A stretch of DNA of 53,851 nucleotides from an uncultured virus (IMG/VR IMGVR_UViG_3300005323_000038) (lineage: Duplodnaviria; Heunggongvirae; Uroviricota; Caudoviricetes). The notes beneath the pieces were generated by a model, which did not search any database, had not been told where the DNA came from, and was given only the letters and a program-made list of their open reading frames with translations. Below are positions 177-51,095 of the stretch, one piece after another. The position numbers and the translations under genes are program-made. Within the stretch, counting starts at the first letter, position 1; each line of letters begins with the position of its first letter. The DNA is taken from the IMG/VR virus record IMGVR_UViG_3300005323_000038, one strand, 5' to 3'.

Positions 177-731
177 CTATCTCACGCAACCTTTCAATAA
201 ATATAAACAGAATGGGATCTCTCCAATTATATTCTTATGATATTCAAGGACTTCATATTTTTGGAATATATCTTGAGGACGAATAAAACTTATATGTCTT
301 TCTGTTGGTTTTGGTTTATCGTCAATGTTATTTAATATCACCGCTCCTTGAGGACAATCAAGAGGAGTCAATATTACAATATATTTGCTTAAATAATAAG
401 CAATATCTAATAAATCAAAAATCTTACTATGAGGAACATGTTCAAGAACATCTCCGAATATAACAAGATCGTATTTTCTTTCTTTCTCGATTTTGTCCAG
501 GATTGGAACATCAAAATATTCGTTATGAATGTTGCGATATCCCTCTGGCTTCAATTTATCAAGATATGCTTGTTCTGGTTCGCAGCCGTCTAAAGTATTT
601 ATCAAGCCACTTAAGAGTTTTCCATATTTGCCAGCTCCAACGCCGACATCGAATACTTTTTTAATATTATATTTTCTTACGATATTTTTTACATTCTCAT
701 TATAATAGTCAAAACTATAAGGCATTTTCAA
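177..731 (-). CDS. Class I SAM-dependent methyltransferase
   Basis: Motif I VFDVGVGAGKYG; YDLVIFGDVLEH motif typical of Methyltransf_23-like enzymes. Confidence 0.85.
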   Translation of the reverse strand: MKMPYSFDYYNENVKNIVRKYNIKKVFDVGVGAGKYGKLLSGLINTLDGCEPEQAYLDKLKPEGYRNIHNEYFDVPILDKIEKERKYDLVIFGDVLEHVPHSKIFDLLDIAYYLSKYIVILTPLDCPQGAVILNNIDDKPKPTERHISFIRPQDIFQKYEVLEYHKNIIGEIPFCLYLLKGCVR

Positions 732-1881
732 GAACTCCTTTTATTGTTTTTGCAATATCTGAATATTTAAATCCTGAATAGATAAATTTCGATATTGTTT
801 CTGGATTTGATGTTTTATTTTTCCATTGTTCATAAACCATTCTCATTTTCTTTCTTACATCAAATATATCTGGTTCATAATACATATAGACTTCGTTTTC
901 AGATCCACCATCAGGGAAATGATGCCTTCCACTAAGTCTTGATGTCCAATCTATATTTGCTTTTACAAAATAAGGATAGAACGCTGAAAGATATGTTTGT
1001 GGGCCATGCGCATTAGTTGTTATAGTTGGAATACCACAAGAAACAGCTTCAAGAGGAACTAAGCCAAATCCATCTCCTCTATGTATAGATAAAACGCAAT
1101 TTGAAGTCTTATATAACTTTGCCATATCTTCATGATTCATGCTTTGTGAACGATAGTAAGTGTGTAATTGTTTAAGAGGATACTTATTTAAAATATCTAT
1201 GTATTCTCTATAATACTCTCCATGTCTATCCGCAGTATTTCCTTCATTTCTTTTCTGAGAGGTTGTTTGGATTATTAATTCAACCATATCGTCATTATTA
1301 AACTCTTGCATAAATGAATTTATTGCTACGTCTGCGCCTTTAAAGTTGCAAATAGAGTTACACATTAAGAATTGGCATCTTTTGTTTTTATCATTATTCA
1401 AATTATCTATATTAAATATGGTTTCATCAACGCCATGAGGAATTACAATTGAATCCATACCGTTTATTTTTAGTCCATGAGAATTTGCCTCAGACGGAGT
1501 AAATATCATATCAAACACTCTAAAATAATCATTCCATTCAAGAGGGAAATTTATATGTGACCAAACGGTATAGAATATATGTTTTTTTGCATTTACATTT
1601 GCTCTTTTTTTGTTGTATTTCGGATCGACAAGAAAATAAATAGCGAAATCAAATACATTATCTTTTAATTCCTCCTCTGTTATTAGAATATTTCTGAATG
1701 TTTCTATTTCGTCTTTTTTCCAAGGACAATATTCTTTTATGCTGTCTTCCAATGACATATCTCTATTAGTCCATAGAAATTTTATATCTACTCCAATTTT
1801 TGCAAGAGATGATATTAAATTTATATTAACTCCAGAGAAAGAGGAGTGTCTAAAAATACTTCCAATTAATAGAATTTTCAT
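715..1881 (-). CDS. GT-B fold (GT4-like) glycosyltransferase
   Basis: VIPHGVD motif; KG in the C-terminal domain; RGDGFGLVPLEAVSCGIPTI (EX7E-type motif). Confidence 0.85.
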   Translation of the reverse strand: MKILLIGSIFRHSSFSGVNINLISSLAKIGVDIKFLWTNRDMSLEDSIKEYCPWKKDEIETFRNILITEEELKDNVFDFAIYFLVDPKYNKKRANVNAKKHIFYTVWSHINFPLEWNDYFRVFDMIFTPSEANSHGLKINGMDSIVIPHGVDETIFNIDNLNNDKNKRCQFLMCNSICNFKGADVAINSFMQEFNNDDMVELIIQTTSQKRNEGNTADRHGEYYREYIDILNKYPLKQLHTYYRSQSMNHEDMAKLYKTSNCVLSIHRGDGFGLVPLEAVSCGIPTITTNAHGPQTYLSAFYPYFVKANIDWTSRLSGRHHFPDGGSENEVYMYYEPDIFDVRKKMRMVYEQWKNKTSNPETISKFIYSGFKYSDIAKTIKGVLENAL

Positions 1882-1882
1882 A

Positions 1883-2974
1883 TTATCTCGTCAGCCTTTC
1901 AATTGATTTTTTTATCTCGCTTCCATATATTCCAAATCTTTCTTCGAAAACGCTATATGCCTTTTGATCTATTATTCCTCTTGATTGCATTTCTTTTGCA
2001 AGCCTCATATTTCTTTTTAAATCTTCTGCGTCTGTCGTAATCCATCTCATTGTTTCATCATAGTTTGGGTTATGTGGAAATCTAAAAGCTTGAGTTATTT
2101 TAGAACTTACTGGAAAACTTGCACCGGGAATAAAGTAATCTACCTGACCACCTTTAGAAGGAGCGATTACAGGTCTGCCAAGAGCCATTGATTCAAGATA
2201 TCCTATTCCGCACCCTTCTCCTCTTGATGGCAACACAAATGCGTCTGCTTGCTTGTTTAAAGACCAAACATCCTCTATTGGAAGAATCTCATTTATGACG
2301 ATACATTGGCATTTCGCTTGATATTTCTGTTTGAATGCTTTTATTTCGTTTTCTATCGATGCACTGTTTTCACATTGAGAGAAGCAACAAGTCTTTATTA
2401 AGAGGCATAAGTTTTCTTCATTTCTGAATTCTGAAAAATATGCATCTAATAAAATATCCCATCCTTTTCTTGGAGTCCATTCAGAGTTAGCAAAAAATAT
2501 AAAAGTATCGTCTTTCTTCTTTATGGTAAACATATCCGATTTAGATTCTCTTATCTTTTGCATATCCAATGGCATCAAAGAAATAAAGTGTGGAATTCTT
2601 AATCCTGACGTGATAAAAGAGGCAGCAGAAAAATAACTCATAGTCCATAATTCATCTGCCTGGTTGCAGTAATCAATCCATTGATGACTTACTCGATCTG
2701 TTTCCGCGACTGTCATAAGGATATTTTTTACTTTGCCAATTCTTTTAAAACAAGGCGGTATTACATTTTGTATCACTACATCAAAATTAAAATCATCTAA
2801 TTCTTCTTTTGTTATAGCGAATCTTTCTATCTCTTCTTTGTCCGGATATTTTGTTCCTTTTTCGATAAGGAATTTTGTCTCTATCCCATTTGCATTAAAG
2901 GCTTTTATAAATTCACGGCTGTTCCTTGCGTATCCTGATGATTCGTGATATCCAAATATCCAAAGGATTTTCAT
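1883..2974 (-). CDS. GT-B fold (GT4-like) glycosyltransferase
   Basis: SGYA N-terminus; RKGWDILL; FVLPSRGEGCGIGYLESMALGRPVI. Confidence 0.9.
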   Translation of the reverse strand: MKILWIFGYHESSGYARNSREFIKAFNANGIETKFLIEKGTKYPDKEEIERFAITKEELDDFNFDVVIQNVIPPCFKRIGKVKNILMTVAETDRVSHQWIDYCNQADELWTMSYFSAASFITSGLRIPHFISLMPLDMQKIRESKSDMFTIKKKDDTFIFFANSEWTPRKGWDILLDAYFSEFRNEENLCLLIKTCCFSQCENSASIENEIKAFKQKYQAKCQCIVINEILPIEDVWSLNKQADAFVLPSRGEGCGIGYLESMALGRPVIAPSKGGQVDYFIPGASFPVSSKITQAFRFPHNPNYDETMRWITTDAEDLKRNMRLAKEMQSRGIIDQKAYSVFEERFGIYGSEIKKSIERLTR

Positions 2975-4180
2975 TTAAATCACCACCATTGTTTTGTTTT
3001 CTTTTGCTGAATTAAATATATGCTCAAAATATGGTGATATGTTATTCCAAGACATAGAACCTTGTTTTAAAGACATGCTTTCTCGATATTCATACGATCT
3101 TGTTTCGACTCTTCTTTCATAAATATCTTTCATATGTTTTACGACCGACATAACATTTGGAAAATTCCTTATGTTTGAATTGTCATTTGGAAATATTATT
3201 TTATCTGGATTTGCGTCAGCAACAATGCTCCCAATAATATATTGGGATAATTCTTTTTGAACTGAATTGTCATATACAATTGTATGCCGACCAACAGCGG
3301 AGGAATATAGAGTTGGAAGTCCAAATCCTTCTCCAATTGATAACAATACATTTAAATCCATCGTATTATATAATGAATTCATTTTCTCGTCTGTAAGAGG
3401 AACTGTATCTGATAATATAACAACTTTATCTTTTACTCCATATGTTTCAGCTATCATCTTTAAATTAAATTCATCTATTGCAAATCCATTTGTTGTATAG
3501 CATAAAAATATCGCATCATCCGATATCGTTTTACAGAAATGGGCGAATGATTGTATTGCTTCAGGCCATCTCTTTCTGTTAAAGTTTTTAGCAATCATTC
3601 CCATGATAAATGTATCATCAGTTGTCTTGGGAATAGAGGATAAAACTTGTTTTCTATGTTTTAATACTTCTTCATCCGATAAAGCATAAAATATTTTTGA
3701 ATCAAATCCATGAGGGATTACATCAACGGCATCTTTTGGCAAAAATCCACCATTCTCAATTAAGTACTTCTGCCATTTTGTAGGAGTAATTACTTTATCT
3801 ATAAATTTAAGATAATACGCCCAAGAACTATCTATTGGAGCGCCATCAAAAACGACATAAGAAATCCAATAAATTTTATCCAAAATTCCTTGCATTGCCG
3901 CATAGTATTGAGGCATATAATACCCATCATTTAATGTAAAAATTATGTCCGGTTTTATAACTTTAGCCAGAGGAAGAACCTCTCTTAAACCATAATTGCT
4001 CCTTGCAATATAAACTTTGACTTTCCCATCAAATGTTTTTACCGGCATAGAGCAATTATAATTACATGCTAAAACTGTAATCTCAAATTTATCGCATAAG
4101 TTTTTTGTTATATTTTCCAAAACCTGAGCAAATCCTGTAGGAGAAGAATAATCCCCTACTATAAAAATCTTTTTCACCAA
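2975..4180 (-). CDS. GT-B fold (GT4-like) glycosyltransferase
   Basis: GDYSSPTGFAQV; VIPHGFD; NRKRW; SIGEGFGLPTL. Confidence 0.85.
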   Translation of the reverse strand: MVKKIFIVGDYSSPTGFAQVLENITKNLCDKFEITVLACNYNCSMPVKTFDGKVKVYIARSNYGLREVLPLAKVIKPDIIFTLNDGYYMPQYYAAMQGILDKIYWISYVVFDGAPIDSSWAYYLKFIDKVITPTKWQKYLIENGGFLPKDAVDVIPHGFDSKIFYALSDEEVLKHRKQVLSSIPKTTDDTFIMGMIAKNFNRKRWPEAIQSFAHFCKTISDDAIFLCYTTNGFAIDEFNLKMIAETYGVKDKVVILSDTVPLTDEKMNSLYNTMDLNVLLSIGEGFGLPTLYSSAVGRHTIVYDNSVQKELSQYIIGSIVADANPDKIIFPNDNSNIRNFPNVMSVVKHMKDIYERRVETRSYEYRESMSLKQGSMSWNNISPYFEHIFNSAKENKTMVVI

Positions 4181-9833: not shown

Positions 9834-11693
9834 TTATCTGCGTATTGCCACGCCATATGACTCCTCTTCTTGCTCTTTTATAACATTCCTCAAAACCTGT
9901 ATATAAAGTTGAACCATTGCGTTCATATAGACATATGCGCTGTATCTATCCTTCTGCCCTGTCTTAACGAAGTACGAAAGGAAATTACCTGCCCTCTGTA
10001 TCTCTACTGAGGCAATTTGCTTCTTCATTATATGAATGGCCTTATACATTGCCGATACCTCTGCTTTAACTTCAGTTCCATTAAAATATTCTTTTGGTAA
10101 AGTATCTTCATCAAAGAGGTATTTCCCATCAGTTGTAAAAGGAATTATCATGTTGTGAAGTTCCAATTGGTTCTTTGCAAACTTATTCCAATATGTATTC
10201 CTTTCTGCCGTTGGAACTAACATTCTAACAATAGAGCGATACAAGTCGCTTCCATTTTCTATCAGAGGAAGATTGTCTGGATCGTCAGGGTCAATAAGAA
10301 ATGGTTTTGAAACAGGAATAAATCTTCTATCTCTTAAGTTATCCCTGATTGCCGTGCCACCGCCACCTTGATCCATTCCAATGAGAATTGTATTCGGAAA
10401 ACATTTATCCAACATCAATATCTTCTCTGTCATCTCTCCAAAAGACATATTCCTATCACCAGAACAATAAACAAGTTGATTATAAGTTTCTCCAAGCTCT
10501 CCAATTACAACAGAGAACTCTGCATTGTTGGCTGAACGTGCAGGGTCAATTCCCCAAACACACATTTTATCAGAACGAAATCTTGGAACGGCTCTTACAT
10601 CAGTTCCGCTTCTATCCTTATATGCATTATGAAGAAGCTCCATACTGAATTCTCTTCCTGATGAAGAGATAATTTTATTTTTGTATTCGGCTTTCCATGT
10701 ATCAATATCAAAATCTGCATTATCAAAATCAGATAAGATTACATTGATATCCATTTTAATATATTGCCTATCTATTCTTGGAGTATTCCATCCTGGCCTC
10801 GAAGTATCTCTCCATAATCCTTTCTCTCCAACGTATGTGTCTTCAAAATCATACATTGCAAAGAAGTTCCTGTTAAATCCATTCTCAGTTAATTCAGCTA
10901 TCTTTTCTTTTTTAAGCCAATCGTTCACATATTGAACTATTTCACCCATAACTCTTTTTGACCAATGCCAGAAAGCAGTCCAATCATAATTTATCGTTCC
11001 TGAGTCAAGAAAGAAATTTTCTTTTGTTGCCATATCTTTTAATTTAGGACAAATCAATTCTGCTCTTGTTTTATTTCCAAAGACTCCCATAGGATCATAA
11101 GGGACTGCCATAAATGGTTTAAAGATTGCGCTCATTATTTCTGCTGGTACATCGTTTCCTTCACCGACTGTTAAAGTATTAGCGCGAAAACCTCTATTAT
11201 CACCATTTATAGCTAATCCCTTAATTGTTGATTGTCCTATATTTATATCCCAATCAGAATTAGATGACTTTATTACAATCTTATCATGCCGTGGCAAACA
11301 TTTCTTTGCATATTCTTTTCTTTCCTGTCCAACAAGAGAGCCTTTAATTATCTGTTCAGAATATTGCATTACTTGTTTGGTCTGCTTAAATGAACCCCCG
11401 GCTACAGACTGAATCCTATATGAATGATAAAGCATTGTCCTTGAAACATGAATTATTGCTTCCATTGTGGTCTTTGCCATACCGCGAGAAAGTATCATTC
11501 CAGCATTAGGATGAGTCCATACACCACGAATACAAAGCCTCTGGTGACAGGCCAACCTTATTCCAAGCATTTCCCTGACAAAATAAACAATGCCCTCTCT
11601 GCGCCTAAACCACCATATCGCTTTAAGGTATTTTTTTCTTGTTTCCCAGTCTACTTTTACATTCTTATTTCTATAGAAAGATAATAACGCCAT
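9834..11693 (-). CDS. Terminase large subunit
   Basis: Walker A SRGMAKT; RGFRAN before a variant Walker B (LTVGE); RNase H-like nuclease motifs WGIDPARS, IGMDQGGGG, KDRYSA. Confidence 0.88.
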   Translation of the reverse strand: MALLSFYRNKNVKVDWETRKKYLKAIWWFRRREGIVYFVREMLGIRLACHQRLCIRGVWTHPNAGMILSRGMAKTTMEAIIHVSRTMLYHSYRIQSVAGGSFKQTKQVMQYSEQIIKGSLVGQERKEYAKKCLPRHDKIVIKSSNSDWDINIGQSTIKGLAINGDNRGFRANTLTVGEGNDVPAEIMSAIFKPFMAVPYDPMGVFGNKTRAELICPKLKDMATKENFFLDSGTINYDWTAFWHWSKRVMGEIVQYVNDWLKKEKIAELTENGFNRNFFAMYDFEDTYVGEKGLWRDTSRPGWNTPRIDRQYIKMDINVILSDFDNADFDIDTWKAEYKNKIISSSGREFSMELLHNAYKDRSGTDVRAVPRFRSDKMCVWGIDPARSANNAEFSVVIGELGETYNQLVYCSGDRNMSFGEMTEKILMLDKCFPNTILIGMDQGGGGTAIRDNLRDRRFIPVSKPFLIDPDDPDNLPLIENGSDLYRSIVRMLVPTAERNTYWNKFAKNQLELHNMIIPFTTDGKYLFDEDTLPKEYFNGTEVKAEVSAMYKAIHIMKKQIASVEIQRAGNFLSYFVKTGQKDRYSAYVYMNAMVQLYIQVLRNVIKEQEEESYGVAIRR

Positions 11694-14241: not shown

Positions 14242-15758
14242 TTTATATATATTACAACCAATAAATTTTATTATATTTCCAAAGTAAATTACATTTTTTA
14301 GCATTTATTTTTTTACAATGCTTTGTTTTTGATTGAAAATTTAAGGCATTTAATTCTGGATATAATGCCGTCACATAACCAACGTGCTTTTCCCCATTTT
14401 TAAATGTATAAGAAACCAAATCTCTATGTTTTATTCCTAATACATTATCATTTTTTGCCTTACTTTGTCTTCTTATAGGTTTAATTATCCAATCTTTTAT
14501 GTTGCAATCATTACCGTCTACAGATAAATCAGTTATAACCATCGCGTCATTAGAATGAGATTTGTCAATATTTAAATCTACTCTTTTATTTGCCGTATCT
14601 CCACCAGTCGTTAGTATAAGAGTGCTTAGTTTTCTTAATTCTTGCCTTAAATATGCTTTCCCTTGCATTACATGTTGAGCATAATCAAATCTTATGTTTT
14701 TCCCATTAATCATTTTTTGATACTTATCAACAAACTTCTCTTCATATCCTTCTGTTTTATCGTGACAATTTCTGCATAAAGTTATGAGATTTTTTATGTC
14801 ATTAGAACCTTTTAATCTACGGGGAACAATATGATGCACCTCTAATATACAATTTGATTTTCCGCACTCCATGCATTTAGCTTTGTCGCGTATTATGGCT
14901 GCTTTTCTTATATTTTCATCTAATCTATTAGATTTTTGATATTGCCATCTATAAAGTCTCTTTCCGTCTTGCAACGCCCTTATATCTATAGCAACATCCT
15001 CTAAGTGATATTCTGTTATATTAACATATTTATTTAATCTGTTAACGACTCTTAATATGGAATCTTTTTTCTGTTTAATACTTGGAGCAATTCGTTCTTT
15101 GCGTTTTGAAGACGCCCTATTGTTAAATCTTTGTGGACGATATCTTTTATGATTTCGATGATATCTACGATATCCACGGCGAGCAGTCATAAGATGATTA
15201 ACATCTTGTCTAAGTTCTATTACTCCTTTAAAAATAACCTTATTCCTTCTTTTACATTTTTGAACAATGGCGATTCCAACATGTTTAGACCCATCATCAA
15301 TTCCTACAATGAACTCTGAGGCGTCTTTTGAAGTATCATCAACATCTTTATTTAATTGGATAACCATAGGATATTTAGAAATTAATATGGCCCTATTTTT
15401 TCTGATTAAATACCATGCCTTACCTACTTTTGTCGGACTAAGTTTTTTACCTTTTATATCTTGTACATAACAGTATTCGATCATTTCTGATCAACCTCCT
15501 TACGGGAATTTTCCTTCTTGCCAATGACAGTAGATAGCGTATATATTTTTGGTGTTTGACCACAGGACATTAGTAGTCGGTCATCCTCAATATTCATAGA
15601 GCTTCAGACTGATGGATACATCCGAAGGTATGTCTTAAACTATTTCTACAATCGTAGTTCATCATGCAATTTAGTTTTCACTATATTGCATTCACTTAGA
15701 CTTGAGACCCCATCAATAGTCTATATATAAAGGATAAATGTCCACCTTTATATATATT
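14242..15758 (-). mobile_element. Non-autonomous IscB-omegaRNA element (no tnpA)
   Basis: iscB plus omegaRNA, bounded by TTTATATATATT at 14242-14253 and 15747-15758. Confidence 0.65.
14252..15484 (-). CDS. iscB: IscB RNA-guided endonuclease (RRXRR/HNH, IS200/IS605 OMEGA family)
   Basis: PLMP-like N-terminus (GKKLSPT); Ruv[10 protein letters not shown]; Arg-rich bridge helix; RuvC-II HLED; HNH (CMECG...HHIVP...[10 protein letters not shown]); RuvC-III SHSNDA. Confidence 0.9.
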
Positions 15759-16953: not shown

Positions 16954-18063
16954 ATGATAAAGAGTGCAGAATACAAAACAGAAGTAATGGACTGGAGAAT
17001 CAAGGAAGAAGAAAGAATCCAGTCATCTATAGATATCCTTACAGATATGATAAATGACGAATGGAACCTTACAAAAAAAGAAGCATTTCCGTTTCTTGCT
17101 CATTTTGTAGAATGCCGTTCGACTTCAAGAGTCTTCTCGAACCTTATCGCTTTGCTCCACAGAATGAAAGACTCCGTAAAACATCCTGAACTTACCGATA
17201 AGAATACAGGACTTTCCTTTGCAATGCTTTCCCATTCCGAAGTCAGTAAATATACCGGAGGCCGTAAATCGAAAGCCGGCACACTTCTGTACTTCCTTTT
17301 ACTTGCTGGCTTTATTACAAGAACAAAGGCCGAGGATGTTAAATCTCAAGAATTCAGAGACAGAATGAAATCCTTTACCTCTGAGAAGAAACAACAGAAA
17401 ATGGAGAAAGAAGCAAAGTCCTTCGACATTAAAGAAACCTCACTGCTTTGTGTTCCTTCCTACGATTATACCCTTCTTTCATTTATAGAATCAAGATTAC
17501 AAACACTTGATAAACTTCATGCAAGAAGATCAGGCTTAACATACGTCTATATCTATACTGTCTTTGGACAAGATGTTGCTGACTCCATATTTCCTTTCAA
17601 CCAAGGACTTTCAGATAAAATGAGAAATGACGTTAGACAGATAGATGAAATGAAAGCCTTTGTCCTTGGAAAGATCAAAGTATATGGAATCTTCCGCTTA
17701 CAGATGTTTAAAGCATTTAAACAGATTGGAAGAAATGGCAAAGAAATTAAGAGAGGATTTAATTACTCACATTGGAAACTTGTCCAGGCGATGTTGATAT
17801 CCGAAGGCAGATTTGTTTACGAAAGAGCTGGACAAGCCTTGATAGAATCCGCTATTTCAGATAAAGACGAATATTCCAAAGATATTACAAAGAAATGCCT
17901 TACAAAAGAAAACGGTAGAATGAAATGTCCTTGCATTCTCGTTGACCATTGGAAATACATGGAATACAAATTCCAAAACAACAAACCTGTTCCTTTACGT
18001 CACAAAAAAGATATGGATAAATATACTACGGAGAAGCACACCTCCTATCAGTATGGCTTCTAA
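16954..18063 (+). CDS. Orphan 369-aa basic protein (possible DNA-binding or initiator protein)
   Basis: AAGGAG RBS, perfect promoter, stand-alone between two repeat-containing non-coding regions; function not recognised. Confidence 0.7.
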   Translation: MIKSAEYKTEVMDWRIKEEERIQSSIDILTDMINDEWNLTKKEAFPFLAHFVECRSTSRVFSNLIALLHRMKDSVKHPELTDKNTGLSFAMLSHSEVSKYTGGRKSKAGTLLYFLLLAGFITRTKAEDVKSQEFRDRMKSFTSEKKQQKMEKEAKSFDIKETSLLCVPSYDYTLLSFIESRLQTLDKLHARRSGLTYVYIYTVFGQDVADSIFPFNQGLSDKMRNDVRQIDEMKAFVLGKIKVYGIFRLQMFKAFKQIGRNGKEIKRGFNYSHWKLVQAMLISEGRFVYERAGQALIESAISDKDEYSKDITKKCLTKENGRMKCPCILVDHWKYMEYKFQNNKPVPLRHKKDMDKYTTEKHTSYQYGF

Positions 18064-18541: not shown

Positions 18542-18952
18542 AATAAGCAGTCTATCCCCCTCACTCTCGGTTCTCTCTCTCCTATTCCCAATATCCCCCT
18601 GTATGCGATTTCCCCAAAGCCCTACAGAATTGCCGAATTTGCCCAAATGAATTCAAATTCACCTGTAAAATCAATATTAATTTTCACTAATATAGCAAAA
18701 TTATTTTTTTCGTAAAAGTAGCGTGGTTATTAGTGCTTTCGGCGAAAAAAAGAATTATTTTAATTATTTTTTAAAAAGTATTGATTTTTAGTTTTTGTGA
18801 GTTATGGTTATAAGTGTGGCGGGGGTCAATGGGTCGGGGGGTCGGGTGGGTGTTTAAAAATTAAACATTAAATTTTAAAAATCAAAAAAATCACTGCTTA
18901 AAAAATAAACACTTCGCAGCGACAAAAAAATAAAAAATAAGGCGGTATTAAA

Positions 18953-19142: not shown

Positions 19143-19169
19143 ATCGGCGGTTGAAAAATTACCGCCGAT
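19143..19169. terminator. GC-rich hairpin (terminator-like; the flanking A-run fits the minus-strand orientation poorly or bidirectionally)
   Basis: ATCGGCGGT...ACCGCCGAT. Confidence 0.45.
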
Positions 19170-19234: not shown

Positions 19235-19792
19235 ATGAAAAAAATTAAAGTAACATTTTTAAGGATTTTTAACGGAAATAATGAAATTAAAATTTTTAGC
19301 TCACTTATTAACTCTATTAATGAAATTAGAATGAAAAAAAATGAAAGTTTATTACCAGAAGTAATGCCTGCAATATTACAAATTGATGAAAACTTTGAGT
19401 TATATTCGAAATTGCACTTTATTAATAACCATTCAAACTTGAAATCCTTAAAAATACTATTCAAAAATTTATTGTCTCAAATTACTTCAGACATTGACTT
19501 GACAGTAAATCCAAAGGTAGGTTTTAAAACGCTTACAAGATTAATTAACATTTTTAATGATAGCACTAAAAAATCATTTTTTGAAGTAAAAAAACAAGAG
19601 TTAATTGACTTTATTGATTCTCGTTTTAATAAAGGTATTTTAAAAACTTCGGTAATATTAACAGTAAATAATGATTTTAAGTTACCTGATTTTATAAATG
19701 TTACTTCATTTATTACTGCCGAAGAGATCCTATCAAAATCAGAAGTTAAAATCATAAAAACTTATAATGAGTTACTTGAAATAATTAAATAA
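19235..19792 (+). CDS. Hypothetical protein immediately upstream of the giant structured RNA candidate
   Basis: AAGGA RBS, 185 aa, very AT-rich. Confidence 0.6.
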   Translation: MKKIKVTFLRIFNGNNEIKIFSSLINSINEIRMKKNESLLPEVMPAILQIDENFELYSKLHFINNHSNLKSLKILFKNLLSQITSDIDLTVNPKVGFKTLTRLINIFNDSTKKSFFEVKKQELIDFIDSRFNKGILKTSVILTVNNDFKLPDFINVTSFITAEEILSKSEVKIIKTYNELLEIIK

Positions 19793-19799
19793 TAACGCA

Positions 19800-21330
19800 T
19801 CTTCGCAGCACGGCGAACCTGAAATATGGTTCGAACCTTTAAGGTTTTTACCGTGCTTTTTATCACTTGCTCTTTAACAGCTTTATATCTTCTAAGTAAT
19901 CGTAAGTTTGAAACGCCTGTAATGTTACAGTCGGTACACTTCGATTGATGCCCATACATCCAAGTAATTGTGTGTCAAGCATCAATTTAAGTAACAATTA
20001 TGACGAACGGATTATATATTTATATCGATTTTTATACCGTTTTTGCAGCTTACATTTTTTGCATACCACGAAAAAACGGCATCATCAAAAATTGACACAT
20101 TCAATTATAATGTAGCGATTATGATTGTCTGGTATATTAATTACATTTATTGTAATTACTTTATACCTTATTTAGATGATGAAAAAAATAAAATAGATAA
20201 GCAATTAATAAGTTTTTTAGACAAGCTCAAAAAGCGTAAAACCTTTTAAGGGCGGGGATAATTTGTCATTGTCTAAAAAGCAAGTCGAAGGCGGCTTAAA
20301 TTTACAGGCGTAAATGTGCAAGGCGAGCAATAAGCGCAGCATGTTTATGTTAGACCGGTGTATTGGAACGGCACTGCTCGAAGAGTAGCGAAAATTGACG
20401 GAATGATTTATCAGTCCTAAATTTTCACTGTTTATCAAATTTAAGTTGGACGGCGAACAGGTTCAAGTAAAAATGAACCTGGCTGTTACCGCGAACGCGT
20501 TACGGGTTAATCACCCGAAGTCGCAAGCCACTAACTAACCATGCTTTGCAGCATGGGACGGCATAGAAAGAATAGCGGGACAGTATAGACTGAAAAGGTC
20601 TGAGGATTGAGGAAACAAGATTTCCTGGTCTGTCGGGTAATGATGAAGACCCCGATATAACTCAGACGGTCTAAATGGTAACATTTGGAATATAGTCTAT
20701 TTGGGAAATCCACAAAAATGTGGTAAGGCGATAAAATCGGGGCTGATGCTGTGATAGGCGGCAGACCTTCTTATGACAATAAGATAACGATTTGAGCGTG
20801 TAGAATTATCACGATAAGACGGTTAATTAAACTTGTTTAGAAGTTTGATAATCACTTCAAAGATTTTCTGTCTTATTAGTTTTTGTCTGGAACGGGTTAT
20901 TGCCCGAACGAAGGTTCGCGCCGTTTTAGACCGCTGGCATACAGAATTAGGGGCTGTATGTTAATTCGCAATGCCCTTCGAGGATATGGCTGTGACCTGT
21001 TACTCGATAAAACTCAAAGACAACGAGAGTTGTCGCAAAAACTAAATTCTTGCAAGAGAATTTATGTTTTTAGTCCACGAGCGTAAAGTTTGCAAGATAA
21101 CCTTTAAAACTTGCCGGGGCTTAACCGTTGGCTCCGCAATGAGTATAAGCTCAACATGCGCCCCTGAAACACGGCGCACACCGACAAGGCCATTGAAACA
21201 CACAATTTGACAACAAACTATGTGTGCGGATTTATTCCCTTGTCGCCCAGGTGGAACGGCAGTAACGATGAAAGACGCGTTGCGAATTTGACCACACTTC
21301 AAAGAAATGCGGGGTGTGGTTTTTTATTTT
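19800..21330 (+). ncRNA. Candidate giant structured non-coding RNA (~1.5 kb)
   Basis: No RBS-led ORF; more than 20 hairpins; GNRA-type loops; long-range helices such as 19913-19922/20302-20311 and 20350-20357/20667-20674; ends in a terminator. Confidence 0.65.
21290..21330 (+). terminator. Terminator with loop AAAGAAATGC
   Basis: GACCACACTTC/GGGGTGTGGTT stem plus T-tract. Confidence 0.75.
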
Positions 21331-21357
21331 AAGACCAATAAAATTAGGAGGTGCGTT

Positions 21358-21480
21358 ATGATTAATAAAGACGGAAACTGCGAATTATGCAGCCTAAGAG
21401 AAACCTGTGAAAAGCAGGTTCTCGCAATGGCGGTTGCTTCAGACATGGAGCCGCAACCATTACTGCCTTGCGAACAGTAA
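21358..21480 (+). CDS. 40-aa Cys-containing peptide (MINKDGNCELCSLRETC...)
   Basis: Manually found; AGGAGGTG RBS; flanked by terminator hairpins. Confidence 0.6.
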   Translation: MINKDGNCELCSLRETCEKQVLAMAVASDMEPQPLLPCEQ

Positions 21481-21485
21481 TTTAG

Positions 21486-21523
21486 AACAGTCACCAACGA
21501 AAATGCGGTGGCTGTTTTTTATT
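21486..21523 (+). terminator. Terminator with loop AACGAAAATGC
   Basis: AACAGTCACC/GGTGGCTGTT stem plus T-tract. Confidence 0.7.
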
Positions 21524-21568
21524 CCCAAATTTAAAGACCGAGATGTCTTAAAACTATAAGGAGATACA

Positions 21569-38983: not shown

Positions 38984-39012
38984 TTGACATTATATACTTT
39001 ATTTGATACAAT
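38984..39012 (+). promoter_or_regulatory. IS607 tnpA promoter
   Basis: TTGACA, 17 bp, TACAAT with an extended TG. Confidence 0.7.
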
Positions 39013-39031
39013 AGAAAAGGAGGTGATACTA

Positions 39032-39631
39032 ATGGATATTTTAAAACCAAAAGAAATAGCAAAAATATTAAATGTAACGGTAAATACTTTGCAGAGATGG
39101 GATAGAGAAAATATCTTTGTCGCTAAAAGAACTCCTAAAACTAATAGACGATACTATACAGAAGAACAATTAAATGATTTCTTAGGTAAGAAAAACAGGG
39201 TATCAAATGATATTGTTATTTATGCAAGAGTTTCAAATAATAATCAAAAAGATGATTTGAAAAACCAAATTGATTATTTAAAGAATTATGCCAATGGCAA
39301 AGGATACTGTATTTCAGAAGTAATAAGTGATATTGGAAGTGGTTTAAATTATAATAGAAAAAATTGGAACTTACTTTTAAAAAATATTTTAACCAAAAAA
39401 ATATCAAAAATTATAATATCGCATAAAGATAGATTTATAAGATTTGGTTTTGACTGGTTTTCTAATTTTGCAAATATGTACGGTTGCGAAATAGAGATAG
39501 TAAATAATGAAATTACAAGCCCTCAAGAAGAGATGGTAAAAGATTTAATAAGCATAATTCATGTGTTTTCATGCAGAATTTATGGATTAAGAAAATATAA
39601 AAATCAGATTTCTGGTGATAAAGCATTATGA
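39032..39631 (+). CDS. tnpA: IS607 transposase (MerR-like HTH plus serine recombinase)
   Basis: AKILNVTVNTLQRWD HTH; IYARVS catalytic Ser; DRFIRFGF; AGGAGG RBS. Confidence 0.92.
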   Translation: MDILKPKEIAKILNVTVNTLQRWDRENIFVAKRTPKTNRRYYTEEQLNDFLGKKNRVSNDIVIYARVSNNNQKDDLKNQIDYLKNYANGKGYCISEVISDIGSGLNYNRKNWNLLLKNILTKKISKIIISHKDRFIRFGFDWFSNFANMYGCEIEIVNNEITSPQEEMVKDLISIIHVFSCRIYGLRKYKNQISGDKAL

Positions 39632-40785
39632 AAACATATAAAACAGAAATAATTTTATCACCAAAACAAATTGAGTTATTCAATAAAACAGTCGGAACTT
39701 GTAGATTTATTTATAATTTATATATTGCCGAAAACAAAACATTATACGAATTAAATAAAAATAATGAGTTTAAGAAGTTTTTAAATAATTCGGAATTTTC
39801 AAAATATTTAAATCATGAATACTTATTAAATAATCCAGATAAGTTATGGATTAAAGAGGTATCAAGCAAAGCAATAAGAAATTCTATTGATAATGCTTAT
39901 ATAGCATTTAATAAGTTTTTTAAAGGGCTAAGCAAATTCCCAAAATTCAAAAAGAAAGGAAAATCAAATGAATCATATTACTTCACAAGATCATCGGTAG
40001 TCCAAAGAATAACTTTTGAAAGACACAGAATCAAAATACCATGCTTAGGGTTTGTTAAATTAAAAGAATATGGTTATATCCCTAAATCTGAAAATATAAT
40101 AAGTGGTAGAATTATTAGAAAAGCTAATAAATATTTTATCTCTTTGATAACAGACGGTGAATTAAAAATAAAAGAAAACAATTATAATGAAGGTATAGGA
40201 ATTGATTTAGGAATAAAAGATTTTGCGATTATATCTAATGGACAAACTTTCAAAAATATCAATAAAACAAGCAAAGTCAAAAGCATCGAAAAAAGACTAA
40301 AACGAGAACAAAGAAAATTATCTCGTAAATTTAAAAATAAGAAAAAAGGAGATGCTACAGGACAAAACCTGAAGAGTCAAATTGTCCGAGTTCAAAGGTT
40401 GCATTTAAGATTGTCTAATATTAGAGAAAACTATCATAATCAAGTAGCAAATGCTTTGGTAAAAGCCAAACCAGAGTATATAACAATAGAAAATCTCAAT
40501 ATTAGAGGGATGATGAAAAATCGACATCTATCTAAGGCAATATCAAGACAAGGGTTTAATAAATTTATTGAAAAGTTAAAATTTAAATGCTATGAAAATT
40601 CCATACAATTAAGACAAGTTGATAGATTTTATCCATCAAGTAAAACTTGCAGTAATTGTGGAAACATAAAGAAAGACTTAAAACTTTCAGATAGAATTTA
40701 TAAATGTTCTTGTGGATTAACAATAGATAGAGATTTAAACGCCGCAATAAACCTTAAAAATGCAAAAGAATATAAAATAACATAA
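39628..40785 (+). CDS. tnpB: TnpB RNA-guided nuclease
   Basis: RuvC-I GIDLG, RuvC-II IENL, Zn finger CSNC/CSCG, RuvC-III DRDLNAA; all catalytic residues present. Confidence 0.92.
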   Translation: MKTYKTEIILSPKQIELFNKTVGTCRFIYNLYIAENKTLYELNKNNEFKKFLNNSEFSKYLNHEYLLNNPDKLWIKEVSSKAIRNSIDNAYIAFNKFFKGLSKFPKFKKKGKSNESYYFTRSSVVQRITFERHRIKIPCLGFVKLKEYGYIPKSENIISGRIIRKANKYFISLITDGELKIKENNYNEGIGIDLGIKDFAIISNGQTFKNINKTSKVKSIEKRLKREQRKLSRKFKNKKKGDATGQNLKSQIVRVQRLHLRLSNIRENYHNQVANALVKAKPEYITIENLNIRGMMKNRHLSKAISRQGFNKFIEKLKFKCYENSIQLRQVDRFYPSSKTCSNCGNIKKDLKLSDRIYKCSCGLTIDRDLNAAINLKNAKEYKIT

Positions 40786-40947
40786 TCAAGTTATTTATAT
40801 TATGTACCGTGGGCTACACGGGAATTTACGCCTTTGGACTGTTATACAAACGATAGTAGTTTTACGAAATCGGACAGGTTGAAGAAGGAATTATCTTAAA
40901 TATATTTAAATATATTTAACGTAGCAGACGATGATGATGAAATGTAC
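40766..40947 (+). ncRNA. TnpB omegaRNA (reRNA) plus predicted guide
   Basis: Structured right end overlapping the tnpB stop; scaffold ends at 40927; guide predicted as ACGATGATGATGAAATGTAC. Confidence 0.75.
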
Positions 40948-42085: not shown

Positions 42086-43091
42086 TCAACCATTACAGAA
42101 TGTTAAAGAAGTAAAAGAATTGATTTCGCCATTTGCAAAAGTTACAGAGAGTCTTTTTATGACCCCCACAATCGGTAAAATTTCAGAGGCCATAGCAATA
42201 TCTCAGTTAAACCTTGAAAAAGTGTTAAAGAATACTAATAATGCTTTTTTTAGGTCAAAATATGCAGATTTGGCAACAGTTATTGATGTTACAAAGGAAT
42301 TTGCAAAAAATGGCATTGCTATAACACAGCATCCATTTGAATCATCAGATGGTAAAAAGGTTGGAGTTACAACCGTCCTTTCACATTCTTCTGGCGAATC
42401 AATGGGTTCGACGCTAGAAATGTTTCCCGTAGAAATGATAAAAGACAAAAACGGAGATACAGTTTTTCTTCCGATTACACAAATAAAACCTCAGACAATT
42501 GGCGCAACTATAACGTATATAAGAAGATACGCTCTTGCTGCCTTAGCTAATGTCGCTCAGGAAGATGACGATGGCAACGCCGCTTCTGGAAGACCACAAA
42601 CCCAAACAAATCAGCAACATACTGAACAAAGGCAATCTAATCCTCCCGTTCAGCCAGTCCAACCGCAACAAAAGAACCCAGAACCTCAACCTGCACAACC
42701 ACAGAAACAACAGCCCGCCCAACCAAAAACTGCTGAAGAGCAATTAATGGCTGAGAAAAAAGTAAGACTTGAAAAACTTCCAAATATGATTTCTCAAAAC
42801 GAATGGTTCGCGTTAGATACAGAGGCAAGTCCTAAGTTCGGAAAGCCGAATGGTAAAGCTGGCATGCAGGAAATCGTTAAATTCGTTTGTAATTCAAAAG
42901 AAAGAGTTGACCCTGCTTCAATGACAATTGAACAGATTGATGAAGTTTTAAGACTTGCAAATTACATCTGTGAGTTCTTTAAAAATGGGGGTCAGCCTGG
43001 AGCTGGCCCGGCTGATGTATGGATTGGGAATATGCACAAAGCATTAAATAATCCTGACAAAAAAGAAGTCGGCAAATATGATATGTTTTAA
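42066..43091 (+). CDS. erf: ERF-family single-strand annealing protein
   Basis: N.FFRSKYADL, GIAITQ, GATITYIRRYAL, EDDDGNAA. Confidence 0.88.
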   Translation: MKMETNNQPLQNVKEVKELISPFAKVTESLFMTPTIGKISEAIAISQLNLEKVLKNTNNAFFRSKYADLATVIDVTKEFAKNGIAITQHPFESSDGKKVGVTTVLSHSSGESMGSTLEMFPVEMIKDKNGDTVFLPITQIKPQTIGATITYIRRYALAALANVAQEDDDGNAASGRPQTQTNQQHTEQRQSNPPVQPVQPQQKNPEPQPAQPQKQQPAQPKTAEEQLMAEKKVRLEKLPNMISQNEWFALDTEASPKFGKPNGKAGMQEIVKFVCNSKERVDPASMTIEQIDEVLRLANYICEFFKNGGQPGAGPADVWIGNMHKALNNPDKKEVGKYDMF

Positions 43092-43107
43092 GGAAGTGAA
43101 GAGATAA

Positions 43108-44460
43108 ATGGTTGGCAAGGAAAAAGAAAATGTTCCAGATATTCAAGAAGATGTAGGATCTCTCGATTCTCAAAGAAGAACTGAACTTGACCTTCTTTCT
43201 CTTGCCATCCGATTTCCTGAATTGGTTTCGGTAATCCAAGACAGACTTAATCCAGAGCATGTTTCAGATTCAGAAGCAGGGAAAATAATAAAAGACTTTA
43301 TACTTGAACGCGGTGTTGCTCCAATAGAAACAACGGTTCAAGATTTGTTTAGCGATTTATCTTATACAATAAATAAAAAACTTGATAAAAAAGATACCAT
43401 CCGTGTAATTGATAATATCGCGATTGCTTTTAAAACTGAATATGCTAAAAGGTCTCTTCCGTTAAAGATAGCAAAGTCAAAATCTCTTCAAGATACAAGA
43501 GAAATATTAATAAAGTCATTTGCTATTCTGGCAGAAGAAAACATCGATGAAAGAACATCGAATGTAGAAGAATATCGAAGCGAATTCTGGACTGAGTATG
43601 GACAAGATAACGGCATGCTTAAATGCGGAATAGAACCGATTGACGCATCGCTTGATGGTGGCTTTCAATATACTGACTTAGTTGTTATATCTGCCGAAAC
43701 AGGACTTGGTAAAACGGCATTTGTATTGCAAGTATTAGATCACTTTTCAAAGAGTCAGAAAACAAAAGTTGCCTTATTTGAAATGGAAATGAAAAGATCA
43801 AAGTTGCTAACAAGACTTGCCGGGGCAGACTGTGAAAATGTTAATTGCACAGATATAATAAATAAGAGAATGAATAAAGAACAGGAAAAAGAAGTTGATG
43901 ATTTTTTAAAGAACTTTGCAAAAAGAAAAAACTCATTCTTCATTATTGATGATGTATTTGACTATAACTCAATAAAAATGAAAATGAGAAAACTTGCGGC
44001 AATGGGAGTTAAGGTCTTTGCAATAGATTATCTTCAGCTTATGATGGAAGATCCGTCAAGCGTTAAATTAGTTGAAATCATTACAAGGGGACTTAAACAA
44101 TTAGCAATGAAGTTAAATGTAATGGTAATTTTAATCGTACAGTTTAAGTATAAAGATGATACAAAAATGATCCAGGACAAAGTAGTAAAGAGAGAGCCAG
44201 AGCTTCAAGATATGAAAGGTGGTTCGGCTTTATCTCAAAATGCTGATAGAGTATTCTTTCTATGGCATGATCCAAAGCTTTGTGAGAATGAAATGGTAAA
44301 CGAATACCATATTGAATTCCTTGCAAAGAAAGAAAGAAGCGGAACGGCGTTTAGAAAATATATAAAGTTCATAAGAAATAAACAGAAGTTTACTTCATGC
44401 GAGCCAGGGTTTATGCCTCCTTGGAAGCAAAATGAACCTCCAAAATTTAAGAAAGGGTGA
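43108..44460 (+). CDS. dnaB: DnaB-like (SF4) replicative helicase
   Basis: Walker A AETGLGKT; FEMEM; IDYLQLM; LK.LA..L; DMKGGSALSQNAD. Confidence 0.88.
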   Translation: MVGKEKENVPDIQEDVGSLDSQRRTELDLLSLAIRFPELVSVIQDRLNPEHVSDSEAGKIIKDFILERGVAPIETTVQDLFSDLSYTINKKLDKKDTIRVIDNIAIAFKTEYAKRSLPLKIAKSKSLQDTREILIKSFAILAEENIDERTSNVEEYRSEFWTEYGQDNGMLKCGIEPIDASLDGGFQYTDLVVISAETGLGKTAFVLQVLDHFSKSQKTKVALFEMEMKRSKLLTRLAGADCENVNCTDIINKRMNKEQEKEVDDFLKNFAKRKNSFFIIDDVFDYNSIKMKMRKLAAMGVKVFAIDYLQLMMEDPSSVKLVEIITRGLKQLAMKLNVMVILIVQFKYKDDTKMIQDKVVKREPELQDMKGGSALSQNADRVFFLWHDPKLCENEMVNEYHIEFLAKKERSGTAFRKYIKFIRNKQKFTSCEPGFMPPWKQNEPPKFKKG

Positions 44461-44996
44461 TGTTAATGCCAGAAAGATGTTTTCATTGTAAAAGAAGTTT
44501 GAACAAAAAATTTAGAGTAAAGGTTGACAATAATATTTATTGTGCAACATGCTACGAGAAACTTAAAAAGTCAGGAGAAATAAAGTCTAAAATTCCTGAA
44601 TTAAACTTAAAACCTCAAAAGGCAAAGCATAAATGTAAATGCAACAATAGTTGTTGCGAAAACAAAAAAGTTTCCAAAGCAGAACAAATGACAAATGATT
44701 TTATAAAAACTTTTAAAGACTTTAATGGGCCGCGTTCTATAACGATACAAATAGCAAATGGGCTGATTGAAACTAAGATTGACCTTACAAACGAAATCGG
44801 AGCAGAAATTAAATCATATAAAAATAACATAAAACACTTATGCTGCGAAGAAACTCTTAAAGGCATAATGAAAGCAATATTTGATCAGCATGAGAGAGAA
44901 GATAAACTTAAAAAAGAAATGCTAAATCATATGCTAAAAGGTAATTTGCAAACAATTCAGGAACAGATTAAACAAAATGAAAAGGAGATGGAGTAA
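44457..44996 (+). CDS. Hypothetical protein with N-terminal zinc finger
   Basis: CFHC...CATC. Confidence 0.6.
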   Translation: MMLMPERCFHCKRSLNKKFRVKVDNNIYCATCYEKLKKSGEIKSKIPELNLKPQKAKHKCKCNNSCCENKKVSKAEQMTNDFIKTFKDFNGPRSITIQIANGLIETKIDLTNEIGAEIKSYKNNIKHLCCEETLKGIMKAIFDQHEREDKLKKEMLNHMLKGNLQTIQEQIKQNEKEME

Positions 44997-45409
44997 TGAG
45001 TAACACTTCAGGATTATTTATCACAACAATTAAATTTAGGGTTCTTGGACAGGAAAAGAAATTTTACAAATTCATGGTTGAATTCAACAATGTGTTGCAG
45101 ATTCATGGCAGTATAATGTATTCAACTAAAAACAGTAATTGGTTTGTGTCATGGCCGGCAGAAACATATGAAGGGAAGGATAAAGTTAAAAAATACAACA
45201 ATTTAGTTTACATTGATAATAAATCCTCAAAAGATGCCGTTGACAATAAAATATTATCATCATTCAATAATGGCGATCCAAGAGATTTTTATTCAGGAGA
45301 CTCTACCTACAATGCAAGACAGGATGCTAAAAAGAATAATAGCGGATATCAACAGAATAATCAGCCTCAACAACAGCCTCCGCAAGATTCTGGTTCATAC
45401 GGCATTTAG
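44996..45409 (+). CDS. SpoVG-like / ssDNA-binding protein
   Basis: IHG.I......FVSWP....Y pattern of the SpoVG fold; Q/N-rich tail; located in the replication module. Confidence 0.5.
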   Translation: MSNTSGLFITTIKFRVLGQEKKFYKFMVEFNNVLQIHGSIMYSTKNSNWFVSWPAETYEGKDKVKKYNNLVYIDNKSSKDAVDNKILSSFNNGDPRDFYSGDSTYNARQDAKKNNSGYQQNNQPQQQPPQDSGSYGI

Positions 45410-50869: not shown

Positions 50870-51095
50870 GGCAAAAACCAAGCTGGAGTATATAGTAAAA
50901 TACTAATAAACAAGGGGGTTAACAAAATTTATTAAGAATATAAAATAACATAATCAAGTTATTTATATTATGTACCGTGGGCTACACGGGAATTTACGCC
51001 TTTAGACTGTTATACAAACGAAAGTAGCATTGCGAAATCGGACAGATTGAAGAAGGAATTGTCTTAAACATATTTATATATGTTTAACGTAGCAG
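50870..51095 (+). mobile_element. tnpB-deleted IS607 remnant retaining an intact omegaRNA scaffold
   Basis: 50934-51095 aligns ungapped to 40766-40927 (about 10 mismatches in 162 nt); 50870-50933 resembles fragments of tnpB 40458-40487 and 40548-40569. Confidence 0.85.

Follow-up and report, generated by a model that had tools for sequence, protein, structure and literature searches.

A predicted boxA-led structured RNA of about 1.5 kb at the head of the early region of an uncultured tailed phage

What does a tailed phage encode in 1.5 kb of DNA free of open reading frames at the head of its early region? The DNA in question lies in a stretch of 53,851 nucleotides (hereafter the window) that represents about half of a phage genome of roughly 115 kb. 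The head genes and a divergent terminase are on the minus strand of the window, the strand switches at 16-19 kb, and the plus strand carries small early genes followed by ERF, DnaB and a DnaE-type polymerase. The stretch 19800-21330 is the longest ORF-free gap within the window, and an earlier note made from the letters of the DNA had proposed that it is a giant non-coding RNA. Consistent with this proposal, no ORF longer than 86 aa overlaps it, the longest lying fully inside is 73 aa, and the sole Shine-Dalgarno-like site in the RNA, a GAGG preceding an ATG at alignment position 1201, is weak.

Other parts of the window hold features of their own. After the head genes come three glycosyltransferases in tandem and one methyltransferase-like gene (715-4180); these glycosyltransferases are also present in the distant relative G009 described below. 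The divergent terminase large subunit (9834-11693) was missed by Pfam and named by Atlas, and has weak matches to SPbeta-like and clostridial phages. An IscB-type RRXRR-HNH gene (14252-15484), absent from the relative G002, gave no Rfam match for a guide RNA. An IS607 resolvase and TnpB are followed by a RAGATH-18 (38984-40890), and a second RAGATH-18 occurs at 50999-51058 without a TnpB gene. A 369-aa protein (16954-18063) has five close homologs and a weak tail with many proteins of 600-700 aa, one of them in G009.

The gene encoding the 369-aa protein led to G002, a complete phage genome of 115,414 bp. Window 19784-21332 aligns with L003 12717-14110 of this genome as a sharply bounded block whose flanks are diverged or absent in G002. 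The RNA measures 1.54 kb here and 1.39 kb in G002, and its open frames are not the same in the two phages. The anatomy, conservation, local helices and boxA of the element, as read from the DNA sequence, are laid out below in window coordinates.

18781..18808, plus strand: promoter-like site TTGATT-16-TATGGT at the head of the early unit, read from sequence (8 of 12 matches)
19143..19169, plus strand: conserved hairpin with a UGAAAAA loop, kept in G002 where the surrounding DNA is not
19235..19792, plus strand: 185-aa basic protein (pI 9.4), candidate partner; its stop codon is 14 nt before the first stem of the RNA
19807..19857, plus strand: 5' three-way junction, pair probabilities 0.97-0.98, two double and one single compensatory change
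19868..19879, plus strand: boxA, identical to that of the E. coli rRNA leader, separated from the 5' junction by 10 nt
19880..20280, plus strand: variable AT-rich 5' domain with covarying hairpins, 2-5 double changes per helix
20281..20555, plus strand: middle domain, 186/219 identical to G002
20556..20965, plus strand: conserved core with multi-branch junctions, 390/410 identical to G002, gap-free
20703..20723, plus strand: motif GGGAARTCCACAA-N2-3-ATGTGG, common to the 817-nt RNA of G009
20966..21285, plus strand: 3' domain with optional hairpins, 245/285 identical to G002 over 20966-21330
21290..21330, plus strand: hairpin and U tract resembling an intrinsic terminator, probably the 3' end (sequence and alignment)
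21358..21480, plus strand: 40-aa Cys peptide, outside the element, no tblastn match in G002

In the 5' part (19795-20280), 322 of 452 aligned bases are identical to G002. Four deletions of 23-57 nt each distinguish G002, and each removes one or two whole hairpins: hairpin 20043-20072 of the 5' domain, two hairpins at 20372-20425 of the middle domain, and segments 21012-21068 and 21201-21223 of the 3' domain. The two GNRA hairpins singled out earlier (21019 and 21044) are among those deleted. An identical run of 193 nt (20651-20843) is the second longest between both genomes within the window; runs of 225, 187 and 179 nt, the longest in the polymerase gene, occur in coding genes too, so recent recombination may contribute part of the core identity. 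The upstream 185-aa protein, suggested earlier as a partner of the RNA, stays adjacent to it in G002, and its identity of 39% is the lowest among the 42 orthologs (59 ORFs tested; median 90%). The Cys peptide, the other suggested partner, loses that role, as it is missing from G002 together with the following 1.5 kb. The downstream gene also differs between the two phages, and the single tRNA of G002 is about 47 kb from the RNA. A metagenome locus, L165, carries the same RNA as G002, and the family therefore comprises two distinct sequences.

Folding was compared with dinucleotide shuffles, and both segments tested proved more stable (19795-20794, z -5.93; 20400-21335, z -6.14; 0 of 20 shuffles each). 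Plus-strand windows of 200 nt starting at 19800-21100 gave z below -2 in 13 of 14 cases, the remaining one scoring -1.16. To assess covariation, we took the pairs that a single sequence predicts with p > 0.8 and a span of at most 300, and asked whether the other sequence can still form them; in the null, 1000 draws sampled substitutions from the alignment. Among 242 predicted pairs, 138 are the same in both sequences and 42 meet a gap. Of the changed ones, single changes left 15 paired and 18 broken, and double changes left 25 paired and 4 broken. Pairing was kept in 40 of 62 changed pairs compared with 27.1 ± 3.5 expected (0/1000), and 25 of 29 double changes still paired compared with 14.6 under the null (0/1000). 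The reverse direction gave 55 of 87 changed pairs kept (null 33.3), with 33 of 41 double changes. In five orthologous control blocks, between 0 and 4 double changes still paired, as under the null, with the exception of one intergenic block that reached 21/1000 for the total kept.

One-sided changes were kept more often on the plus strand (15 and 22 in the two directions) than on the minus strand (9 and 2), the bias expected from G-U wobble, which favours a plus-strand RNA. Double changes necessarily appear on the minus strand too. Their presence on both strands, along with the nearby strand switch, could be accommodated by a DNA-level element, such as an origin or a packaging or entry signal, with hairpins forming in single-stranded DNA. 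We consider such an element extremely improbable given the plus-strand bias of the wobble changes, the GNRA loops, boxA and terminator, which are RNA signals, and the lack of an iteron array. It is very probable that the element is a selected RNA structure.

The individual helices proposed in the earlier note fared unevenly. Each of the 20 strings that the note quotes is present in the region, at its coordinates where these were given. The 5' stem (AGCACGG/CCGTGCT) pairs 7/7 in G002 and the TCTGAG/CTCAGA helix at 20599 pairs 6/6; ATAAGACGG, GTCTGGAACGG and CGACAAGG can form 9/9, 11/11 and 8/8 pairs, and TTAGACCG still pairs 7/8. The longest proposed helix, 19913/20302 (ACGCCTGTAA/TTACAGGCGT), has to be abandoned: just 5 of 10 pairs are possible in G002, and a covarying local hairpin with four double changes displaces it. 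At 20214/20269 the in-register pairing does not hold (4/11 in G002), but a different helix of 8 bp exists at the same place. ATAGACT/AGTCTAT is a sound helix (7/7 pairs in G002) but not the pseudoknot that had been envisaged; in the consensus fold it is an ordinary nested helix, and it would be pseudoknotted only if the candidate 20350/20667 helix forms.

The terminator noted earlier was identified by eye and from the alignment. Its 11 pairs are all possible in both phages, with five one-sided changes, and conservation ends there; it is absent from the hairpin scan because its loop exceeds the 8-nt limit of the scan. The hairpins 21290-21321 and 21488-21514 are successive and terminator-like and have in common a loop ending GAAA(A)UGC. 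The terminator of the G002 RNA carries the loop of the second hairpin.

How far does the fold extend? The helices that carry double changes, among them hairpin 20458-20481 with four beneath an invariant loop, reach over no more than about 105 nt, and no helix spanning more than 200 nt has a convincing double change. Covariation between the two sequences proves local modules only. The long candidates 20738/21136, 20696/21255, 20818/21129 and 19875/20488 are possible in both phages and are invariant or changed on one side. Jointly possible helices of more than 200 columns were in excess at score 18 (18 vs 7.0 ± 2.6; 0 of 25 block shuffles, a procedure that destroys local repeats as well), and this excess was gone at the strictest score of 22 (1 vs 0.6). 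We regard it as likely that the RNA forms one continuous giant fold. The locality of all double-change helices could instead reflect a chain of independent small modules (processing hairpins, protein-binding sites, repeated AGAC/ACGG words) in an untranslated early leader, and hairpins are indeed gained or lost between the phages. AGAC and ACGG are also the top 2 of 256 4-mers enriched jointly in the window RNA and G009. This alternative is nevertheless doubtful, as it sits poorly with a gap-free 410-nt core of 95% identity and multi-branch junctions, with the long-range complementarity in excess, with the bracketing of the whole by one boxA and one terminator, and with the absence of a conserved internal promoter within the RNA. 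The sites found by the 10-of-12 promoter scan are all on the minus strand, and the spacing of 8 nt between TTGACA and TATAAT at 20092-20111 (9 nt in G002) is too short for a promoter.

The early unit is ordered promoter, small basic ORF, RNA and terminator. Its promoter-like site at 18781, which scores below the scan threshold in the window, has the same hexamers and spacing in G002, where a perfect sigma-70 promoter (TTGACA-17-TATAAT, L003 12042-12070) stands just before the conserved hairpin. We take this hairpin to be boxB-like or a T-loop. The 185-aa protein has no PHROG, Pfam, Atlas or fold match; its AlphaFold model is poor (pLDDT 53) and the fold search with that model was empty. An identical fragment, G001, ends at 18915, just past the first early promoter, possibly at a genome end.

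The boxA at 19868 is the only match in the window at up to one mismatch, shuffles giving 0.62, and an exact boxA would be expected by chance about 0.01 times in the window by base-composition arithmetic. It is single-copy and at the same place in G002, its 12-mer is identical in the E. coli rrnB leader, and it fits the consensus GYTCTTTAANA / UGCUCUUUAACA given in passages of 10.1101/091223 and PMC13753749. At the position of a boxB-like hairpin, upstream of boxA, a covarying three-way junction ends 10 nt before it. Nus factors loaded at the boxA of E. coli keep Rho from acting and assist rRNA folding, and they can be titrated by nutL RNA (PMC4807359, in part). The B. subtilis boxA differs from the E. 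coli form (PMC13753749, in part). The terminase and TnpB resemble Firmicute sequences, weakly, and with an E. coli-form boxA the host NusB may therefore not read it. As in the E. coli rrn leader and lambda nut, the exact boxA 12-mer comes after a hairpin and before a long untranslated structured RNA; unlike there, the downstream RNA is not rRNA, no boxC is conserved and the boxA lies behind a translated ORF.

In phiEco32-like phages a boxA and an ORF-free RNA of 0.8 kb or more also head the early region. The likeness is limited to the boxA-led layout; those leaders have several boxA copies where ours has one, and the phages are unrelated. A profile of seven phiEco32-like sequences gave no nhmmer match to either RNA, nor did the search in reverse, and the word chain reached 1/200 for the window and 25/200 for G002; Kuravirus homology was rejected as not supported. 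Our literature search found no paper on the boxA-led early leader RNA of phiEco32-like phages.

Lambda nut, HK022 put and EAR provide precedents for antitermination in cis, and the RNA could be a leader of this kind, with boxA and the folded RNA staying on RNA polymerase through early-operon terminators and an N-like 185-aa protein. The hairpin junction preceding boxA, the GAAAA-loop hairpin upstream, the loop that the terminator-like hairpins 21290 and 21488 have in common and the same-strand genes over more than 30 kb downstream would all fit. Known cis antitermination elements measure tens to about a hundred nucleotides, however, so the invariant 410-nt core is left unaccounted for; in addition, boxA is not repeated downstream and no similarity of the 185-aa protein to N or NusG was detected. 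We consider a cis-acting leader unlikely.

A group I layout can also be drawn on the RNA (P3 20446/20667, P4 20458-81, P6 20482/20579, P7 20588/20693, P8 and a 7-nt J8/7), as though it descended from a group I intron core and now stood alone, without splicing. The order and adjacency of the segments fit, all are kept in G002, and ATATAGTC resembles GATATAGTC of the T4 introns. The descriptor, however, was passed by 37 of 500 shuffles and recovered only two of three T4 introns; Rfam Intron_gpI gave no match at E up to 10; the guanosine-site bulge of P7 and the G of J8/7 are missing compared with T4 td and nrdB; and the P4 pairs vary freely. There are no exons either, the upstream ORF ending before the RNA and a terminator closing it, and no such core is found in G009. 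Such a descent is quite improbable.

The core statement of the earlier note, a large structured RNA where the early region starts, is upheld by these data, which support a conserved, non-coding, plus-strand RNA without an Rfam family. No Rfam model matched at gathering score and only noise appeared at E up to 10, and ARAGORN found no tRNA in the window. ROOL, OLE, raiA, RNase P, tmRNA and rRNA were likewise without an Rfam model match or ARAGORN call. Group II domain V, not seen in the earlier note, had no Rfam match. A long lower stem and a triad are features of domain V, and the GAAA hairpin 21259-21283 was dismissed by eye as it has neither. Type III toxin-antitoxin RNAs are tandem RNA repeats upstream of a toxin gene; here, the direct repeats include no tandem array and the RNA is downstream of the ORF. 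Mimicry of tRNA was rejected because GGTTCGA at 19828 pairs otherwise by covariation, and a CsrA sponge because merely two ACGGA occur (by eye).

According to parts of 10.1101/2024.12.08.627333, PMC5737381 and PMC12990946, solved GOLLD members measure 700-833 nt and form RNA-only cages by cryo-EM, and ROOL RNAs average 581 nt and occur in anaerobe phages and bacteria. GOLLD is further described in parts of 10.1101/2024.12.08.627333 as having a conserved 3' and a variable 5' portion, with optional helices differing between members. The present RNA resembles GOLLD, as far as these parts go, in being large, multi-junction and phage-borne, with a conserved 3' part and a variable 5' part bearing optional helices, here deduced from sequence. 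It differs from GOLLD, which is usually near tRNA genes, in that the window has no tRNA, the GOLLD model matches neither at gathering nor at E up to 10, and the RNA is 1.39-1.54 kb, boxA-led and in the first early unit. With ROOL, as described there, it has in common being a large ornate RNA; it is longer, without an Rfam match and without a tRNA neighbour. By model and tRNA context, the predicted RNA is an uncatalogued giant phage RNA outside GOLLD and ROOL. The ICP1 RNA of about 800 nt and lnc001/002 of phage K are, in the portions of their descriptions used here, highly transcribed ORF-free stretches, lnc001 from an early promoter. Our RNA is likewise an ORF-free phage stretch, expression having been measured there and the prediction here coming from sequence alone; our RNA has no sequence match in the phage collection that includes annotated genomes.

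Is the RNA present elsewhere? Phage and plasmid collections gave only chance matches of 34-52 nt to it and none to the G009 RNA. A 21-mer scan of viral contigs returned G002 alone, two 16-mer scans returned 30 and 40 loci, of which one each was G002 and the others chance, and a metagenome scan returned 40 loci, one true (L165) and 39 chance. The flanking 185-aa and 132-aa proteins used as queries gave no locus. Two fragments do not reach the RNA, as G001 ends at window 18915 and G003 about 320 nt past the 369-aa gene. With a terminase profile, 15 viral loci and, in G009, one phage contig were retrieved; for 14 terminase-relative loci, the RNA was absent from all 7 records searched whole. A covariance model of the core matched 1 of 8 records, namely G002, and in a search for an antisense copy or paralog in G002 the best other match had E 1.38. 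A gap of 2.36 kb in G008 (42683-45040) is ORF-poor, with a tRNA-Pro and no consistent folding signal. The literature search, with most subscription journals outside its scope, found no description of the RNA. The candidates in the sections of PMC10690425 used here are 29-151 nt long and require three unique regions; 6 of its supplements held no match, and a fragment may be listed among 3 others.

The phage in G009, whose terminase is 41% identical, has a slot equivalent to that of the window RNA, with a perfect promoter, a 103-aa basic ORF, an 817-nt RNA and a terminator.

L122 (G009:C16) 6926-6110, minus strand: 817-nt ORF-free GC-rich RNA candidate, z -7.98

The 817-nt RNA has no Rfam match at gathering, and its predicted fold contains a long-range helix closing about 500 nt. 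After it come a leader hairpin and a homologous early gene, as in the window; the hairpin AGAC-CGARAT-GTCT and the ribosome-binding site before this gene are nearly identical (window 21535-21563, G009:C16 5818). G009 and window RNAs have in common one motif of 21-22 nt, and GACGG is enriched in the RNAs including that of G009 (5, 5 and 7 copies vs about 1; 0/200 shuffles). Covariance-model alignment of the fold surrounding the motif to the G009 RNA reached 9.7 bits (E 0.98), the best local alignment of the G009 RNA with the window and G002 RNAs was poly-A, and the word chain gave 58/200 for the window and 9/200 for G002. No boxA within one mismatch occurs in the G009 RNA, and none of 5 partial records contained this G009 RNA. 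We put homology of the 817-nt RNA to the window RNA at about even odds.

The explanation we prefer, with a probability of roughly 50%, is an abundant early RNA resembling GOLLD and ROOL but of a new family, folded with the assistance of host Nus factors and with a scaffold or decoy role exerted in trans. The first early transcript would start at a host-type promoter, encode a fast-evolving small basic protein, carry the large non-coding RNA as its 3' part and stop at the terminator. Where translation stops, boxA would load host NusB/NusE as on ribosomal RNA, which would shield 1.45 kb of untranslated RNA from Rho and assist its folding during transcription. The folded product would be abundant and modular, its nearly invariant core bearing additional hairpins, and would most likely serve as scaffold or decoy within minutes of the start of infection. 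As a decoy it might target a host RNA-binding factor, either Nus proteins or an anti-phage sensor or nuclease, and the 185-aa protein perhaps acts alongside it. For this transcript we infer the ends, the abundance, the single fold, the Nus binding, the partner and the decoy role.

A more specific version is tentative, namely that a single folded particle of 1.4-1.5 kb, made in the manner of rRNA as the first major product, belongs to a family that includes the compact 817-nt form and works with a fast-evolving protein to neutralise a host factor. If true, this RNA would exceed any non-ribosomal, non-intron bacterial RNA in the literature compared, and unrelated phages would have arrived repeatedly and independently at giant early RNAs led by boxA as a strategy. 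The largest solved members of the giant phage RNAs such as GOLLD and ROOL measure about 830 nt. The RNA predicted here is nearly twice the size of the solved giants and comes from a different setting, a first early transcript without tRNAs. Its single boxA, single terminator and one neighbouring protein offer testable handles, as do the natural deletions, which mark dispensable helices. Probing and cryo-EM need no host, as the RNA can be made by in vitro transcription. If the link to Nus holds, phages would borrow the machinery that folds rRNA or drain it from the host.
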